Source: an uncultured virus (IMG/VR IMGVR_UViG_3300029258_003649) (lineage: Duplodnaviria; Heunggongvirae; Uroviricota; Caudoviricetes). Taken from it: a stretch of DNA of 64,000 nt. Every line of letters begins with the position of its first letter. Within the stretch, counting starts at the first letter, position 1. A model generated the notes under the pieces. It was not told the DNA's origin and ran no database searches. It was given only the letters and a program-made list of their open reading frames with translations. Shown in pieces: positions 10,066 to 64,000 of the stretch. The DNA is taken from IMG/VR virus record IMGVR_UViG_3300029258_003649. The stretch is one strand, 5' to 3'. Position numbers and translations under genes: made by a program.

Positions 10066-11844
10066 ATGGCTGAACGCGCATGGAATCTGGATGATGGATT
10101 TACACTGGTCACGGCGGAAGAGATTAGCTACCTGTCCGGTGTTACCTCCGCCATCCAGACTCAGATCAACGGAAAGCTTGCCAACGTGGTCGAGGACACC
10201 ACTCCCCAGTTGGGTGGTGACCTCGACCTCAACGGCAACACCTTCTCGATCAGTGGTGGCACTGGCCTAGACGGCCAGGCTGTCGTCTCTGACGGCGCTG
10301 GCGGTGTGGCCTGGGAGTACGCAGGCGGCACCGTTCAACCAACCGATGCGAGAACCTACAACATCCGCGCAGCTAACCAGGGCGCTACCGCGGGCAATGC
10401 CCGCGGCGAGAACTCGGTCGACTTGCAGACCGATCGCTCGGTGAATACCCAGGTGGCTTCGGGTGCCCACTCTGTCGTTCTCGGCGGTGAGGATAATACC
10501 GCGCAGAACAACCACGCCATTGCCGGTGGCCAAACCTGTGTGGCCTCCGGCGTCAACGCCGTGGCGATCGGTGTAAGTTGTACTTCGTCGGGCCTCGCCG
10601 CGACCGCGCTGGGCTCTGGTAACACCGCAGCCGGGCCGCAAAGCTTCATAGCCTGTCAGGGCAACTCGACGGCGTCTGGCAACGGCTACTGCGTTGTCTT
10701 CGGCCAGAATAACCATATCAGCGGCACCGGCGACTACGGCGGCATCCTGAGTGGCCAGTCGCACGATATCACCACTGGTGGCAACTGGAGTGTGATTGCC
10801 GGTGGCTACGGCCATCAGCTCACAGGCGGTAGTGCGTACAACGGCATCCTGAGCGGTAATGCCAACCAAATCACGCTGCCGCATGTCAACTCCGGTGCCG
10901 GAGCCAATGTGATCTGCGGCGGTCGTAGCAACCTCATCGACGACAACACGCTCGGGACGACGTACTCAATCATCGGCGGTGGGTATCTGCATACCATCGG
11001 CGGTGACTACAACGGCGTTCTCAGCGGCTACGACAACGAGATCGTCGAGAACGCCACGTACTGCTTCCTCGGTGGCGGTGATACCAACCTGATCAGAGGC
11101 ACAGCGAGCGGCTGCGTCATCGTCGGTGGCCACGACAACATCGTGGGCTCGGCCGGTACGGCGGCGATCACCGCTTCGACCGTCGTCGGTGGGCAGCTCA
11201 ACGAGATCGTCGGGCTACAGGACTACTGTTCGATCCTCGGTGGGTACAACAACGACATCACCAGCGGCGACTACGCTACCGTCCTGGGTGGCAACGGCAA
11301 CTCGATCATCGACGCGTCGCATTACGGGCTCGCATCCGGTTATCTGAATGTGGTCTCGTCGCCGCACTCGATCGTGCTGGGCTACTACTGCCGCAGCGAC
11401 CACGAGGGGCTCCATTACGGCAATGGAACTGCCAGCGGTGTTGCCCAGGCCAGCACACACATACTGATGAAGGACGTGACCACAGCAACGCTCACGGAAC
11501 TGGCATATCGCGGCCAGACTCCGGGCACGAACACGACGCTCGTCATCCCGGAAAGTACGACGTGGCTGGTGAAGGTCTACGTCGTTGCTCGTCGGACAGA
11601 CGTAGACGGCGAGGGTGCCGCGTGGGAGTTCAGCTACGCCGTGCGTCGTCCTGCCGGCGTCGGCTACCCGTCGCTTATTGGCTCGGTGAGCAAGACGGTC
11701 ATTGCCGATGACTCCGCCGGCACGTGGGACGCCGATGCGACCATCTGGTCGACCAACTACCGCTTGTACATCCGCGGCAAGGGCGAAGCAGGCAAGACAG
11801 TCAGATTCGTGGCTCGAGTAGAACTTACTCAGGTTAAGGGCTAA
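10066..11844 (+). CDS. Modular fibre/spike protein 3 with GG-x-x-N beta-solenoid repeats
   Basis: Shared N-terminal modules, then about 15-aa [S]xIxGGxxN repeats (adhesin-head-like), then the shared C-terminal domain. Confidence 0.7.
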   Translation: MAERAWNLDDGFTLVTAEEISYLSGVTSAIQTQINGKLANVVEDTTPQLGGDLDLNGNTFSISGGTGLDGQAVVSDGAGGVAWEYAGGTVQPTDARTYNIRAANQGATAGNARGENSVDLQTDRSVNTQVASGAHSVVLGGEDNTAQNNHAIAGGQTCVASGVNAVAIGVSCTSSGLAATALGSGNTAAGPQSFIACQGNSTASGNGYCVVFGQNNHISGTGDYGGILSGQSHDITTGGNWSVIAGGYGHQLTGGSAYNGILSGNANQITLPHVNSGAGANVICGGRSNLIDDNTLGTTYSIIGGGYLHTIGGDYNGVLSGYDNEIVENATYCFLGGGDTNLIRGTASGCVIVGGHDNIVGSAGTAAITASTVVGGQLNEIVGLQDYCSILGGYNNDITSGDYATVLGGNGNSIIDASHYGLASGYLNVVSSPHSIVLGYYCRSDHEGLHYGNGTASGVAQASTHILMKDVTTATLTELAYRGQTPGTNTTLVIPESTTWLVKVYVVARRTDVDGEGAAWEFSYAVRRPAGVGYPSLIGSVSKTVIADDSAGTWDADATIWSTNYRLYIRGKGEAGKTVRFVARVELTQVKG

Positions 11845-11846
11845 AC

Positions 11847-14800
11847 ATGTCCCTGCACTATAACAACAGAACGAATCAGATCGAAGCGATCGGCACAGCC
11901 GGTACGCTGGTGAACTTCACCGGGTTGGGAATCAACAACCTGGTCGAAGACACTACGCCCCAACTCGGCGGCGATCTCGATATGAACGGCAACAATATCG
12001 AGGGCGTCACGCCTACGGAGATGGGCTACCTGTCCGGCGTCACAAGCGCCATCCAGACACAGCTGAATGGTAAGGCTCCGACCTCGCACACGCACGTCGA
12101 AGCCGACATCACTGATCTCGGAAGCTACCTTGAGAACGTCGTAGAAGATACTACTCCGCAGCTCGGTGCTGACTTGGACGTGAACGGACACACGTTCAGC
12201 ATAGGAGCCAGCACCGGAGCAGCTAACCAAGTCCCAACGTCCAACGGCGCGGGTGGTCTTAGCTGGGCGGCTCCGCAGGTCGTCGCCGACACCACCCCGC
12301 AGTTGGGCGGTGACTTGGACATGAATAGCAACAACATCACCGCGGCAGGTCCGACAACGATCTCGCCGACGGAGGTGTCGTACCTGGACGGCGTCACGTC
12401 CAACATTCAGGATCAGCTCGATGCGTTGGCGGGCGGCGGTGGCGGCACGGTCCAAGGATCGGACGCGACCTACGACATCCAAGCAGCCAACGAAGGCACG
12501 GTCGCAGGTAACGCCCGTGGTGAAAACTCGGTCGACCTCCAGACTGACCGTGCCCTGGCAACACAGGTCGCCTCGGGCGTCGCCTCTGGTATTCTGTGGG
12601 GCCACGACAACCTGGCTTCCGGTGCCGATTCCATGGCCGGTGGCTATCTCAACACCTCATCGAATACCTACACTATCGCGATGGGCGACACCAACACTGC
12701 TTCCGGTGCCTCCTCTATAGCGATGGGGAATGACAACACGGCATCCAACGGCTTCTGCTACGCCATCGGCTCGACCAACAGTGTTACTGGATACAGCTCC
12801 CTGGGTTTCGGCTGGAGTAATACGGTAGCAGGCGGAGGCGCCGTGTGCCTCGGAGGAAGCAACTCGATCGCCGGCTTCGACAGCGACTGCATCGCGATCG
12901 GGACCTCCAACAATATCTCTGGCGGAACGGGTACGACCGGCAACCGGCACGTCGCCATCGGCTACGACAACGACATCTCGGCTAACGGCGGCACCTCCAC
13001 GATCGTCGGCGGCTTCAGCAACGACATCACAGGCGGCTCCAGCAACAGCGGCAACGCGATCTTCGGTGCGGTCCTCTGCACGATCGACGCCAACCAAGGG
13101 TCAAATATCCTGGGTGGGTCGACAAACACGATCACCACCAACGGCACCTACAATACGATCTGCGGTGGGCTCCAGAACGACATCACCAGCGGCGACCTGG
13201 GCTACAACGTCATCGGCGGCGGCTACGGCAACACCAACAGCGGCGGTTACTCGGTCTGCTGCGGCGGCGACATCAACACGGCTGGCTACCGATGGACATT
13301 CGTCGGCGGCGGGCGCAACAACAGCAGCGCCGGTGACTTCAACGGCATAGGCTGCGGTGACAGCAATATCACGTCGGGCAGCAGCTATTCGACCATCCTT
13401 GGTGGGCGGGCCAATACAATCACTGCCGGATCGTATTCTGCGGTCATTGGCGGGTGGCAGTGTGACGTGACGGCCAGCTACGCACTCGCATTTGGGCGAC
13501 AAGCCCGTGCCATCCATAGCGGGGCCATGGTCTTCGCAGACGGTTCCGCAGCCGCCGATTTCGACTCGATCGCCACCAACGAGTTTGCTATCCGGGCCAG
13601 CGGTCTCCGCCTCGTCGACGGAAACCAGACCAACGGCTACGTCCTGACATGCGACGCCAATGGCACAGGCACCTGGCAAGTCAACGCCGCCAACGATGCC
13701 GACGCCATCCACGACAACGTGGCGGGCGAGATCGCTTTGATATCGTCCAAGGCTACTCCGATCGGTGCCGACTTGGTGCTGATCGAGGACTCCGCGGACT
13801 CGAACAACAAGAAGCGGGCGACTGTATCGTCGCTTGCCTCAGCGGTCGGTGCAGGTACGAAACAAGCCAGCGACGGCACCTACGACATCCAGCCCACCAA
13901 CGAGGGTGCGGTTGCCGGTAATGCTCGCGGCGAGAACTCGGTCGACCTGCAGACAGAACGGAACGCGGCCAACCAGATAGCCTCGGCAACGTACTCGGTC
14001 ATCGTCGGCGGTGCTCGCAACCGTGTCGACGAGAGCTACAGCTCGATTCTGGGCGGCTACGCCAACTACATCGCTGCGTCGTCCCTCTCGGGCTACCATG
14101 TTATTCTCGGCGGCAGCACGAACACCATCTCCGCAACAACAGGCGAGTTCAACGCCATCGTCAGCGGGGAGACCAACCAGATTGGTGTGACGACAGCGGC
14201 CTCGGACTACTGCTTCATCGGCAGCGGTCAGCAGCATACGGTTGATGGCAACTACGGAGTCGTCTGCGGTGGTCTCAACTGCGACATGAACACGCCGTTC
14301 TACGGCTTCCACGGCAACGGCAGCCAGAACAACCTCACGTCGACGGGCGATTACAACACGATTCTGAACGGCTTCTCGCACGACCTGACCGGCTCGTCGG
14401 ACTATGGGCTGATTCTGCAAGGTAACAACAACCAAGTCTCGGCCTTCTACGCGACGGTCATCAACGGCGTCAACTGCACGGCGACCCAAAACGGTGCTCT
14501 CGTCGCGGGAAATACGAACGACTGTGCCTCTAGTTATGGTGTCTGCTTCGGCAGCGTGAATGACGTAGGCACTGGCGGGCAATGCAGCATCCTCGGCGGG
14601 TCTAGCAACGACATCTTCGCAGGCAACTCCAATACGATCTGCGGCGGGCAGAGCAACGTAATCACGACGGCCCAGTCTGATTACAACTTCATCGGCTGCG
14701 GCAGCAGCAACACGATCGGCGGCGTCGGTAGCGACCGAAATGCCATCTGCGCCGGTGCGACCAACGCTATCGGAACGACGCACGCCTCCTTCAACTGCTT

Positions 14801-60594: not shown

Positions 60595-63396
60595 ATGTTA
60601 AGACGCCGGTCGATCAACGCGCATATCGGATGGCACCAGGTGCTGCCATTGCTAGGAATCAAGGCCGCCTCCACGTCCATCCCGCTGATGGTGCCCTGCC
60701 CGATGTGCAGGAAACCCCGCCTGACTATCTACAATGATAGCAAGTTCGGCGGGAATTGGCACTACTGCCCTGACTGCCATTCCTCTGGAGATATGATAGA
60801 ACTGGCAGCAAAAACGTGGAAGATCAGTTTGGAGGACACAATCCGGCGATTGGTCGCCTCCGGGCTCCCATTCCCGGCGGACGCCGTCACTCAGGAGGCA
60901 ATCCGGCGCTACGAGCAGGGCTACGTGGCCGAACAAACGCACATTCGCCGGCTGCGCGAGGACAGCCGCCGGCTGATGGCCGACGGGGACGTCCAGCTCG
61001 AGCGCGTCCTCCAGCAGATGGGCCTCCCGCAGGACCACCAGCGGGCCTACTGGCGGAAGCGCATGGGGCGCTTCATCGGCGGGGCCGACAAGCTCCGCTG
61101 CATCCAGGGGTTCTACCCGCACGCCGGTCCGCGCAAAGAGAACTCTGTGGGCCGCAACGAGCACGCGAACATGTTCCGCGGCAAGGGCTGGAACGATATG
61201 CTCGTGGTGCCCTTCCACGATCTGCCCGAGCGCTGTGCCGGTGTGCTGTTCATCGGCCGCCACGCCGAGCGAGACAAAGACTACACGTTCCGGCTGGTCG
61301 ACTCCAAGCTGGCGCCGCACGGGGCTGCCGCAGCTGTGGCGGAGATCGGCGTGTGCATGGCGGACGTGCTGAACGGCCCGACGTCCCATGCGCAGCTCTT
61401 CAAAAATCAGGTGTTCGTGATCCCCGATCCGGCCACGGCGCTCAAGCTGCAGGCCCGGCACATGAAGGACGCGGACCTCCCGCTGCCGATCGTGGGCACG
61501 TACAACGCGCTGGTCCGCCGGCAGACCCGTAAATGGGAGCTGCGCACGTACGACTTCTGGCGTACCCGACCGGACAAACGATTCATCTTCTGGGACAAGG
61601 TGCTGTCGGCCAACCTGTTCAACATGGCGGCGCGTGCCGATGGGCTTGTGAGCATCGTCCCTGCTGCGCAATACACGTGGCGGCGGCCGCCGCACATGTG
61701 GCTGCGAGACATGCAGCGCCGGGCGCGACCCTGGGCAGAGGCGCTAGAGGCGCATCTACGCGTAATCCCGGAGGACGCGGCTGCGACGCTGCTGCAAAAC
61801 ATCGACATCCCTCCCGACATGTTGATGCAATTCACGGATGGCTGCTGCGACGAGGTGCAGGAGCTGCTGGAGCGCCACCGAAAGGCGGCCACGCAGTTCC
61901 ACAACACGACAGTCAGGGGCCAGGGCATTGAAGAGATGAGCAATGGCTGGCACGTCGCCAAAACCGGCGAGTGTGTCTGTGACGCCATTCTCAGGGTGGA
62001 GAAGGTCATCTGCATCGAAGACGACGAGGACGCCGACCCCTACTATCAGGGGAGGATCATCTATGGTAATGAGCAGGTGGAATTCGTTGAGCCCATGAGC
62101 AAGATCGAGAGCGACCCAGGGACATGGCTCAAGAAGAAGGTGCTGTCCAAGCTCGGCAAGATGGTCGTCATCAAGCGAGCATGGGCACCGCACATTTTCG
62201 ATATTGCTCGTGGGCTACACACCCCCGAGGTCATCCGTGAAGACGGAAAGTTCGGCTGGAAGCCACGCGACAGCTGCTTCAGCCTCCCTAAGTTCGCCGT
62301 GCACGTCGGAGGTGAGGTGTGCGACGAGCCCGCTCATGTTGTCGACGCATGGGCACCAGGCCAGGATCTGGATGCGCCTACAGCGGTGATTCCCGATCTC
62401 TCTCCGCTGCTGGAGGACAGCCCAGCAAACGCTCTGGTGTGGGCAACCGCCGCCTGTATCGGAGCGAATATCTTGGCGCCTGCAGTAGGGCAGCACGTGA
62501 CCGGTATAGGGCTCATCGGTCATGGTGCTGTGCTCTGCGGGAAAGAGACTGCAAGAACGTGCGGATGTTGTGAGTACAGTAGTGCGTCTGCGACGCCGGC
62601 GGGCATAGACAAATCTTTGGGAGTGATAACTGATGTCACAGCCCGGCATCGCTGGCCGTTAATGGTGAACATGCAAAACCAAGCTCGTCGTGTCCAGGAC
62701 GTCATGGCACACGGCGGCTACGAAGCAAACACCATCCTGTGCACCGATAAATGGCACGCCGACGTCTGGTCACTCGTTGGTTCGTGGCGGTTTATAAACG
62801 GACCCAAGGCCGTAGAGCCGGGGGCGCATGTGAGGCAGTTATTGCCGCGCGTGCTGCCTCTGTGGCTCAGGCGTATCAGCCAGCGCAAGTTCAAACTGGA
62901 ATCACATGCGGACGAATACCTGATCCGCGTGATCGACGACATGGCGTCCATGATGCAAGAGCATGGGCCAGTCAAGGTGATCTACGAGGCTGGCAGCCGT
63001 GTAGATAACGTGGCGGAGCTACCCAAGAAGCCCGCGCAGAAGCTGGTAGCCCTGCTGCATGAGCAAATTTGTGACGGATACATTCGATTCGCACGCCCGG
63101 GCGACACGACCAAAGGGCGAGGCGCGACGATCGTGCGGTGTGCGCCGAAAGACCGTGCGCCAGGCATTTTCATCCCTAGAGTTGCTATCACTGGCATCTG
63201 TGAGAAGCGTGGTGTGATGCCCCCCGATCCGGCCAGGGTAAGCGACGCATTCAAAGCTGCCAATGCACTGGATGGCGAATGCGAGTATGATAATGAAAGG
63301 GGCTGGTTTATATCAGAGTCATGGTGGAACAAGCAGATCGACCGCTGCAACTCTAATCCTCAACACCGGTTAAAGGTAATAGGAGGTGACGAATGA
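60595..63396 (+). CDS. Large replication protein with an N-terminal primase-type (CHC2-like) Zn finger
   Basis: CPMC..LTIY..WHYCPDC..GDMIEL..EDTIRRL; no intact TOPRIM or Walker motif recognised. Confidence 0.55.
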   Translation: MLRRRSINAHIGWHQVLPLLGIKAASTSIPLMVPCPMCRKPRLTIYNDSKFGGNWHYCPDCHSSGDMIELAAKTWKISLEDTIRRLVASGLPFPADAVTQEAIRRYEQGYVAEQTHIRRLREDSRRLMADGDVQLERVLQQMGLPQDHQRAYWRKRMGRFIGGADKLRCIQGFYPHAGPRKENSVGRNEHANMFRGKGWNDMLVVPFHDLPERCAGVLFIGRHAERDKDYTFRLVDSKLAPHGAAAAVAEIGVCMADVLNGPTSHAQLFKNQVFVIPDPATALKLQARHMKDADLPLPIVGTYNALVRRQTRKWELRTYDFWRTRPDKRFIFWDKVLSANLFNMAARADGLVSIVPAAQYTWRRPPHMWLRDMQRRARPWAEALEAHLRVIPEDAAATLLQNIDIPPDMLMQFTDGCCDEVQELLERHRKAATQFHNTTVRGQGIEEMSNGWHVAKTGECVCDAILRVEKVICIEDDEDADPYYQGRIIYGNEQVEFVEPMSKIESDPGTWLKKKVLSKLGKMVVIKRAWAPHIFDIARGLHTPEVIREDGKFGWKPRDSCFSLPKFAVHVGGEVCDEPAHVVDAWAPGQDLDAPTAVIPDLSPLLEDSPANALVWATAACIGANILAPAVGQHVTGIGLIGHGAVLCGKETARTCGCCEYSSASATPAGIDKSLGVITDVTARHRWPLMVNMQNQARRVQDVMAHGGYEANTILCTDKWHADVWSLVGSWRFINGPKAVEPGAHVRQLLPRVLPLWLRRISQRKFKLESHADEYLIRVIDDMASMMQEHGPVKVIYEAGSRVDNVAELPKKPAQKLVALLHEQICDGYIRFARPGDTTKGRGATIVRCAPKDRAPGIFIPRVAITGICEKRGVMPPDPARVSDAFKAANALDGECEYDNERGWFISESWWNKQIDRCNSNPQHRLKVIGGDE

Positions 63397-63668
63397 AGGC
63401 CACCAAGATGCTGAGGACGTGCAAGCTCGTGCTCCAGGAACTGGAGGATCTCGAGGAGATGTTGCCCTTCATCCCGGGCGACCAGCGTGCGGATCAGTTC
63501 ATCCACGAGAGCCGCGGAGCCGTGACGGAGCTGCAGCTCATCGCAAAGTTCGAGACGGTGGACAACGTCACCTCCGAACAGGCCTTGCACATTCGGACGA
63601 TCCAGGGCAGAATCAATAAGCTTAGGAACATGGTTCCTGAGGACATACGAAAAGAGTTCGGAGACTAG
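63393..63668 (+). CDS. Hypothetical protein
   Basis: AGGAGG RBS; ATGA-coupled. Confidence 0.65.
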   Translation: MKATKMLRTCKLVLQELEDLEEMLPFIPGDQRADQFIHESRGAVTELQLIAKFETVDNVTSEQALHIRTIQGRINKLRNMVPEDIRKEFGD

Positions 63669-64000
63669 TGGTAGACGGAAATCTGCGGCGGGAATGGCTT
63701 TTAGGTCCAGTGCCCGCTTGCCGGCCGGTTCGACTCCGGTGACCACACGAACCACTGGGCAGGTCAGTATCTGGCTGGGGCTGTAGGTCTCGGCTAAGCG
63801 GGCGCAACTCCCGCCAGACGGTTCAACAGTCGCTTGAGATACCCTCGGTAAACCGAGCGGCCGGGCCTATATGGTCGAGGGTACAGCGCTAGCCAGCTTC
63901 GACTGGGACTGTTGGTAGGACAGACGTAGGCGATAAACCGGTAGGCAGCCGCCGCGCTAAACGCGGGAGGGCACCGGGAACCGAATAAAACCTACGAGCG
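63668..64000 (+). ncRNA. Large structured ncRNA with tRNA-like domains, probably continuing past the window
   Basis: T-arm gccgg-TTCGACT-ccggt, a second T-like arm gcggg-CGCAACT-cccgc, and nested helices caacagtc/gactgttg, taccc/gggta, cgtagg/cctacg; no credible ORF. Confidence 0.6.

Follow-up and report, generated by a model that had tools for sequence, protein, structure and literature searches.

We resolve a 63-nt stretch of conserved RNA (positions 63826-63888) within a non-coding spacer of a large uncultured phage, and the covariation of its pairs across lineages indicates that it is a real conserved fold, a pseudoknotted three-way junction. This compact, covarying fold is absent from Rfam 15 and was previously undescribed, and in three of the five lineages that carry it, it sits just ahead of a tRNA or tRNA-like gene. 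Positions refer to the window, which is the whole 64,000-nt stretch of DNA that was analysed. The first-pass annotation of this DNA had read positions 63668-64000 as the start of a giant ornate RNA; that observation is mostly a false alarm, and a G+C-rich spacer is easily misread in this way. If the motif controls the maturation or survival of phage tRNAs, it would bear on phage tRNA supply during infection, and it would provide a small, tractable RNA for structural and biochemical work.

Genomic context of the spacer

The region 63668-64000 comprises the first 333 nt, or the 5' two-thirds, of a 499-nt spacer placed in the tRNA island of the phage, between the gene for a 91-aa protein and an HNH homing-endonuclease gene, at which the spacer ends 166 nt beyond the window. 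The phage occurs in sediment and seawater. The sequence beyond the window end was read from a viral record (G001, 161,817 bp, CheckV completeness 75%; locus L002), which is 100% identical to the window over 63400-64000. On the gene strand, the order is the 933-aa gene, the 91-aa gene, the spacer, the HNH gene (PHROG 3106), a tRNA-Met gene and a further spacer of ~457 nt. The island then continues with a second HNH gene on the opposite strand, a second tRNA-Met, a spacer of ~236 nt, a 304-aa gene, tRNA-Glu and tRNA-Gln. The two endonucleases match phrog_3106 (E 4e-30) and phrog_2255 (E 4e-23), and ARAGORN calls four tRNAs only over the whole viral record, namely the two tRNA-Met, tRNA-Glu and tRNA-Gln. 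The 91-aa protein has no Pfam or PHROG family match, and its homologues (37-49% identity) come after the 933-aa gene in relatives. No paralogy is observed among the three long spacers of the island.

The spacer is non-coding. Its ORFs on both strands have no Pfam or PHROGs family match, translated comparison with relatives gives no similarity (tblastx, best E 0.14), and the spread of G+C over the three codon positions is 0.04-0.16, versus 0.22-0.54 in the flanking genes. Read-through of the 91-aa stop codon was also considered and rejected: three in-frame TAGs follow downstream, but under table 11 there are unbroken long ORFs elsewhere. Because the spacer is bounded at 499 nt, any large RNA within it would measure at most about 500 nt. 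Its sequence is identical, with zero variants, in every spanning contig from four DNA runs, so that no population-level covariation is usable.

Table 1. Features of the spacer and its upstream neighbours, in window coordinates
Feature	Position	Strand	Description
933-aa gene		gene strand	upstream of the 91-aa gene
91-aa gene	63393..63668	+	from the ORF list; last base of the TAG stop is the first base of domain 1
Domain 1	63668..63746	+	lineage-specific; sole tRNA feature is the T-arm hairpin 63724-63740
Domain 1 stem	63668-72 / 63742-46		gtggt / accac
Domain 1 T-arm	63725-39		CCGG/TTCGACT/CCGG
Domain 2	63749..63824	+	lineage-specific; T-arm-shaped hairpin; unsupported as a tRNA-like unit
Domain 2 stem	63749-53 / 63820-24		gaacc / ggttc
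Domain 2 hairpin	63798-63814		GCGGG/CGCAACT/CCCGC
Domain 3 stem	63824-31 / 63907-14		caacagtc / gactgttg
Pseudoknotted three-way-junction RNA motif	63826..63888	+	63 nt inside domain 3; models R1 and R3
Motif pseudoknot	63829-33 / 63857-61		5 bp between the 5' flank and the hairpin 1 loop
Motif closing helix	63840-47 / 63876-83		8 bp
Motif junction	63848-52		GUAAA
Motif hairpin 1	63853-55 / 63862-64		loop 63856-61
Motif hairpin 2	63865-68 / 63872-75
Tail of domain 3 and domain 4	63889..64000	+	lineage-specific; no R2 match; tRNA similarity z <=2.0
Domain 4 stem	63925-30 / 63991-96		cgtagg / cctacg

Folding of the listed domains

All of the stems on which the ornate-RNA reading was built are present in the sequence (Table 1), and they are no more than the chance level for a sequence of 60% G+C. 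When each domain was compared with 200 dinucleotide shuffles, the fold of domain 1 was matched by 85/200 shuffles (z -0.21), that of domain 2 by 25/200 (z -1.13), that of domain 3 by 7/200 (z -2.01) and that of domain 4 by 24/200 (z -1.24), while 4/100 shuffles fold as well as the whole 499-nt spacer (z -1.92). In a sliding fold scan of 97 windows over 5 kb, the eight spacer windows range from -2.57 to +0.78, and ten non-spacer windows, several of them coding, match or go below the best spacer window. The shuffle control proposed for the domains thus returns values (z -0.2 to -2.0) that are background, with comparative support for a piece of domain 3 only. The fold of domain 3 as it had been drawn, with the caacagtc/gactgttg outer stem and a ctcgg-TAAA-ccgag hairpin, is not the one backed by the comparative data. 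The whole spacer and domain 3 nonetheless fold somewhat better than shuffles, and some further structure may be present.

Domains 1 and 2 as candidate tRNA-like elements

ARAGORN in default mode reports 0 tRNA and 0 tmRNA on the window, and the Rfam tRNA model has no match at E<=10 in 63300-64000. We also used a tRNA model (R2) built from 17 tRNAs of this phage group, which scores the four real tRNAs at 72-80 bits. In the spacer, R2 finds the T-arm hairpin of domain 1 alone (63724-63740, 11.2 bits, E 0.064), and over all of the viral record it gives no match within domains 1 or 2 at E<=1. The model is sensitive enough to detect two aberrant tRNA-likes elsewhere in the same record, at 21.5 and 18.1 bits. 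Local alignment to the 17 tRNAs gives best z values of 1.9 for domain 1 and 2.7 for domain 2, which are unremarkable for 17 comparisons. Hence neither of the two supposed tRNA-like domains is recovered by ARAGORN, the Rfam tRNA model or R2, apart from the one T-arm hairpin, and the spacer resolves neither to ordinary tRNAs, none being called in it, nor to a coding gene.

Relaxed searches were set aside as noise. When relaxed to an 80% threshold, ARAGORN reports domains 1 and 2 as tRNAs, but it also makes 226 calls genome-wide (~1.4 per kb). Its intron, mitochondrial and tmRNA modes likewise return calls at the genome-wide noise level, the intron calls having poor T-loops. No tmRNA, including the two-piece form, is found by default ARAGORN or Rfam, and the 80% threshold yields seven such calls in 5 kb.

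The T-arm hairpin of domain 1 has a 5-bp stem, a 7-nt consensus loop and an abutting acceptor-like 3' strand, and this strand pairs with 63668-74 through five Watson-Crick pairs and one G-U pair, with one mismatch. Hairpins reading GGTTCGANTCC in the viral record all lie on the gene strand (7/7), three of them in called tRNAs and four outside. This T-arm hairpin is probably not due to chance. Since a tRNA-Met directly follows the 91-aa gene in two relatives (loci L006 and L032), domain 1 may be a relic of that tRNA-Met.

Three further tRNA-like elements were observed in the viral record. The two aberrant ones detected by R2, both missed by ARAGORN, are L017 8798-8902 (-), with a CAU anticodon-type loop and a ~38-nt variable-region insertion (21.5 bits, E 0.0022), and L020 5898-5944 (-), a mini-helix of T-arm and acceptor stem (18.1 bits, E 0.02). 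The third lies in the next spacer of the island (L002 8243-8313, -) and combines a perfect 7-bp acceptor stem with a D-arm-like hairpin and a consensus T-arm, leaving no space for an anticodon arm; the tRNA-Sec model gives it 23.5 bits (cut-off 47), and R2 gives 11.8 bits, from the T-arm alone.

A conserved pseudoknotted motif within domain 3

The comparative signal comes from the core of domain 3. In a first alignment of three copies (A3), RNAalifold resolves an 8-bp helix around two short hairpins, with four pairs changed on both sides. A model built from those three sequences (R1) found two lineages outside its training set, scoring 61 bits in L007 (E about 1e-15) and 46.9 bits in L065; its matches in four other lineages score 47-83 bits, and the window copy scores 81.1 bits. 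The copies in L065, L075 and L079 are identical to each other. We then aligned five distinct sequences, one per lineage (A6), and built a model from all five (R3), with which the window copy scores 71.6 bits.

With the nested helices counted on an alignment fitted to the model, and from five lineages only, 97.3% of the 75 pair cells of A6 are paired and 7/15 pairs are changed on both sides. When the pseudoknot is included, 98/100 pair cells are paired, versus a shuffle mean of 87.9%, and 8/20 pairs are changed on both sides; neither value is reached in any of 500 shuffles. The pseudoknot is exempt from the fitting, as it is absent from the model, yet 25/25 of its cells are paired. Its central pair is G-C in three lineages, A-U in one and U-A in one. 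For the pair set as a whole, sliding the 3' partners by 1-3 columns leaves at most 44% paired. Ten of the pair cells are G-U, making the fold specific to the gene strand. The search for covariation that had been proposed for the region therefore gave a positive answer for 63826-63888, where changes on both sides of pairs are found.

The pairwise identity of the motif (56-77%) compares with 57-80% for the tRNA-Glu and tRNA-Gln genes of these phages (seven pairwise comparisons). In the window copy, all helices are paired, including 8/8 pairs of the closing helix, 5/5 of the pseudoknot and 3/3 of hairpin 1; the junction carries UAA, and some of the pairs differ on both sides from those of the other lineages. 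The motif does not stand out in single-sequence folding.

Distribution and tRNA neighbourhood of the motif

R3 finds exactly one strong match in each of six of the seven viral records, the exception being a 25%-complete fragment. In the 161.8-kb record of this phage, the window motif is the only strong model match, and among 15 other loci no further copy was found apart from L032. Six pattern scans of viral contigs bring the total to five lineages. One of these scans returned 15 stretches, 9 of which fall in four lineages, including the new L065 lineage; 12 of the 15 were given to the model, three duplicate contigs being left out. Of the six unrelated stretches, all of which were rejected, five have no model match at E<=1 and one (L072) has a partial match of 12.4 bits with unpaired flanks. 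Twelve other matches of an earlier viral scan were judged by eye to be coding-like. Specific pattern scans of a prokaryote genome collection gave no hit for the motif and none for the module described below, and no motif copy examined has a match in Rfam.

A gap of 6 nt separates the end of the closing helix from a tRNA-Glu on the same strand in L006 and L007, and one of about 5 nt separates it from a cloverleaf-like fold in L065. In L032, the motif lies ~200 nt before a tRNA-Gln with no tRNA directly after it, and in this phage R2 finds no tRNA-like sequence after the motif. Thus, the motif stands directly upstream of a tRNA or tRNA-like fold in L006, L007 and L065, and does not do so in this phage or in L032. 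The L065 fold (443-537, +) spans 95 nt (z -1.79) and is uncalled by ARAGORN and R2. Its acceptor stem is 8 bp long, an extra arm is present, the anticodon-type loop reads UUUGCAA and the loop of the T-arm is unusual.

Mosaic structure of the spacer

Relatives of the flanking proteins were found at seven viral and ten metagenome loci. Loci identical to this phage have an identical spacer, and relatives at 31-49% protein identity are without it. In these relatives, the 91-aa gene is directly followed by tRNA-Met (L006, L032) or by an HNH gene (L007, L029). A metagenome scan with the 91-aa alignment yielded ten loci, none of them of intermediate divergence with a spacer, and among deposited phages only the tRNA-Met genes match. 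In sensitive searches with pieces of the spacer, domains 1 and 2 and domain 4 have no homologue in any relative. Only two pieces do have homologues: the motif region, where spacer positions ~161-225 (in domain 3) match non-coding DNA of L032 and L006, and a module downstream of the window.

By synteny alignment, the tail of domain 3 and domain 4 occupy the position of the tRNA-Glu of L006 and L007. The order of motif, ~110 nt and module in this phage mirrors that of motif, tRNA-Glu and module in L006, so that domain 4 sits where the tRNA-Glu would be. A short stretch after the motif resembles the 5' end of the L006 tRNA-Glu, a weak likeness seen by eye.

The module itself (L002 9056-9146, -) is ~90 nt long and starts about 10 nt past the window end. 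Its first 35 nt (spacer 346-380) are 88.6% identical to L006 13784-13816, between tRNA-Glu and tRNA-Gln, and 75 nt of it recur identically in a short contig of the X12 run with different, L032-like flanks. It was considered as a repeated promoter, but it is single-copy in the viral record of this phage.

Interpretation of the spacer

The reading that we favour, and hold to be rather probable, is that the spacer is a mosaic and not one RNA machine, and that it holds the conserved motif as a structured tRNA-leader module. Domains 1, 2 and 4 would probably be remnants of tRNA genes and of rearrangements caused by the two invading HNH endonuclease genes, a suggested origin for which the tRNA-similarity z values are unremarkable. 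The motif would be transcribed as the 5' leader of a tRNA precursor and released by an RNase P cut at the 5' end of the tRNA; released or still attached, it could act in cis on how the precursor folds, is processed or is protected from nucleases, or it could persist as a stable small RNA by-product. In this phage, the tRNA due after the motif would have been lost or replaced, with the fold left fully intact. A leader role cannot be general, given that this phage and L032 both lack a tRNA directly after the motif. The best explanation would make the motif a functional RNA element, and the fact that its fold is intact without an adjacent tRNA, and has both-side pair changes of its own, speaks for an independent function and against decay alone. 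Going further, the motif might represent a new functional class of phage RNA that controls the fate of tRNA precursors and also acts alone, and would hence be kept after tRNA loss; we consider this unlikely. The roles that it could then have, among which we do not rank, are those of a nuclease-blocking cap, of an RNase P-free self-processing element at the tRNA 5' end, or of a ligand- or protein-binding aptamer.

The mirrored order of motif, ~110 nt and L006-like module also agrees with a different account, in which the whole spacer, motif included, would be a decaying duplicated tRNA cassette (leader, tRNA-Glu and trailer module) with no present function here. A working tRNA-Glu elsewhere in the island, the lack of a tRNA after the motif, and the two HNH genes and duplicated tRNA-Met of a rearranged island are all in keeping with this. 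However, the motif here is the only strong match in a record that is 75% complete, and all of its helices are intact with lineage-specific changes on both sides, which is unexpected for a relic as old as the divergence of the flanks; we regard such decay as rather doubtful. It is decidedly unlikely that the whole spacer of ~430-500 nt forms one lineage-specific large structured RNA, into which the motif and the downstream module were recruited as sub-domains. In its favour are 499 nt without coding signal in a tightly packed genome, the whole-spacer z of -1.92 (4/100 shuffles as good), the two conserved modules inside the spacer and its identity in all spanning contigs of the DNA runs, although this between-sample identity is uninformative because there are zero variants. 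In relatives, by contrast, the two modules lie apart from each other, each flanked by tRNA genes, domains 1, 2 and 4 are without homologue, the sliding-window z values contain no outliers, and no large-RNA family of Rfam matches. Finally, we find it improbable that domains 1 and 2 are unusual working tRNA-likes, such as decoys or RNase P processing signals. The consensus T-arm of domain 1, followed by a strand that pairs with the 5' end of the domain, would suit such a role, as would the GGTTCGANTCC hairpins, all seven on the gene strand and four outside called tRNAs; yet no full-length match comes from ARAGORN, the Rfam tRNA model or R2, even though R2 picks up two other aberrant tRNA-likes in this genome, and the two domains fold no better than shuffles and have no homologues.

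Comparison with known RNA families and systems

At the gathering score, Rfam models match nothing in the window or the full spacer (L002), and further runs, on the loci of eight relatives and in E-value mode on three stretches, add no family for the spacer. The models of GOLLD and ROOL, which passages of 10.1101/2024.12.08.627333 and PMC5737381 present as large ornate RNAs, have no match at the gathering score, nor at E<=10 or E<=5. The spacer resembles GOLLD and ROOL in being non-coding, in a phage, beside tRNA genes and several hundred bases long; it differs from them in that no model matches, its length is at most 499 nt, it is not conserved as a unit in relatives and its thermodynamics are at background level. 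The proposed likeness to these giant RNAs is accordingly not borne out. The alternative that had been offered, a new class of RNA, holds on a much smaller scale, for the 63-nt piece of domain 3, which is conserved, covarying, pseudoknotted and without Rfam match.

The best match in E-value mode is to the Tymo_tRNA-like family (RF00233) at 63756-63828. It scores 21.7 bits where the gathering cut-off is 40, with an E-value of 0.036 when 701 nt are searched and of 0.26 when 5.1 kb are. The likeness to tRNAs and to this family consists of the domain 1 T-arm with its consensus loop and, in domain 2, of a hairpin of the same shape abutting the closing stem. Unlike these RNAs, domains 1 and 2 have no cloverleaf, and no D-arm or anticodon arm was recognised in them.

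Operons for tRNAs are known to release small stable RNAs and spacer RNAs, such as the stable RNAs of the T4 tRNA cluster and bacterial transcribed-spacer sponges. Like them, the motif would be a non-tRNA RNA transcribed together with tRNAs, and RNase P would set one of its ends; unlike them, it has a defined pseudoknotted fold conserved across phage lineages, and no homology links it to them. Among eukaryotic viruses, those of plants carry structured pseudoknot modules beside tRNA-shaped RNAs, and flaviviruses carry ring-forming exonuclease-resistant RNAs. Viral RNAs of this kind are treated in part of PMC7603331. The motif shares with them a junction fold, a 5' flank that pairs back in and an adjoining tRNA-shaped RNA, a likeness that is topological only. 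The order of helices differs. Our literature search found no pseudoknotted tRNA-leader element or exonuclease-resistant RNA of phages, which is weak evidence of absence. To our knowledge, the tRNA islands of phages have not been described as carrying structured tRNA leaders of this kind.

The arrangement of the island has a parallel in T4 SegB, described in part of PMC2330249 as a free-standing homing endonuclease inside a phage tRNA cluster. Here too, two endonuclease genes lie among tRNA genes, and the island differs from those of relatives by insertions and a duplicated tRNA-Met. In contrast to SegB, which is of the GIY-YIG type, the endonucleases here belong to the HNH family and are known from their genes alone.

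Additional observations

About 130-180 nt past the window (L002 8985-9032, -), a two-tier hairpin (z -4.84) buries both the ribosome-binding site and the ATG of the first HNH gene, with 0/200 shuffles as stable; in contrast to the spacer windows, it is a true thermodynamic outlier. A similar hairpin is seen by eye over the start of the HNH gene in L029. This hairpin probably serves the translational control of the endonuclease. Another such outlier (L002 8090-8300, -; z -4.37, 0/200 shuffles as stable) covers the 3' portion of the second spacer, adjacent to where the opposite-strand HNH gene ends, and has no homologue in relatives.

The window differs from the viral record G001 at 10438-13877, within which 11044-12576 aligns at 92.6% and the flanking ~600 and ~1300 nt are unaligned; this looks like a variable region between strains.

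In one relative, an intergenic gap between ORFs at L007 13276-13359 (+), equivalent to G003:C1:73004-73087, contains an 84-nt copy of a segment of 23S rRNA (Rfam LSU positions 2129-2212). A multi-locus search gives this copy 58.1 bits (E 1.3e-14) and a 451-nt search 52.0 bits, and it was not found in G001, G002 or G004. The copied segment is, we presume, the L1-stalk region of 23S rRNA, and the copy could act as a decoy for ribosomal protein L1.
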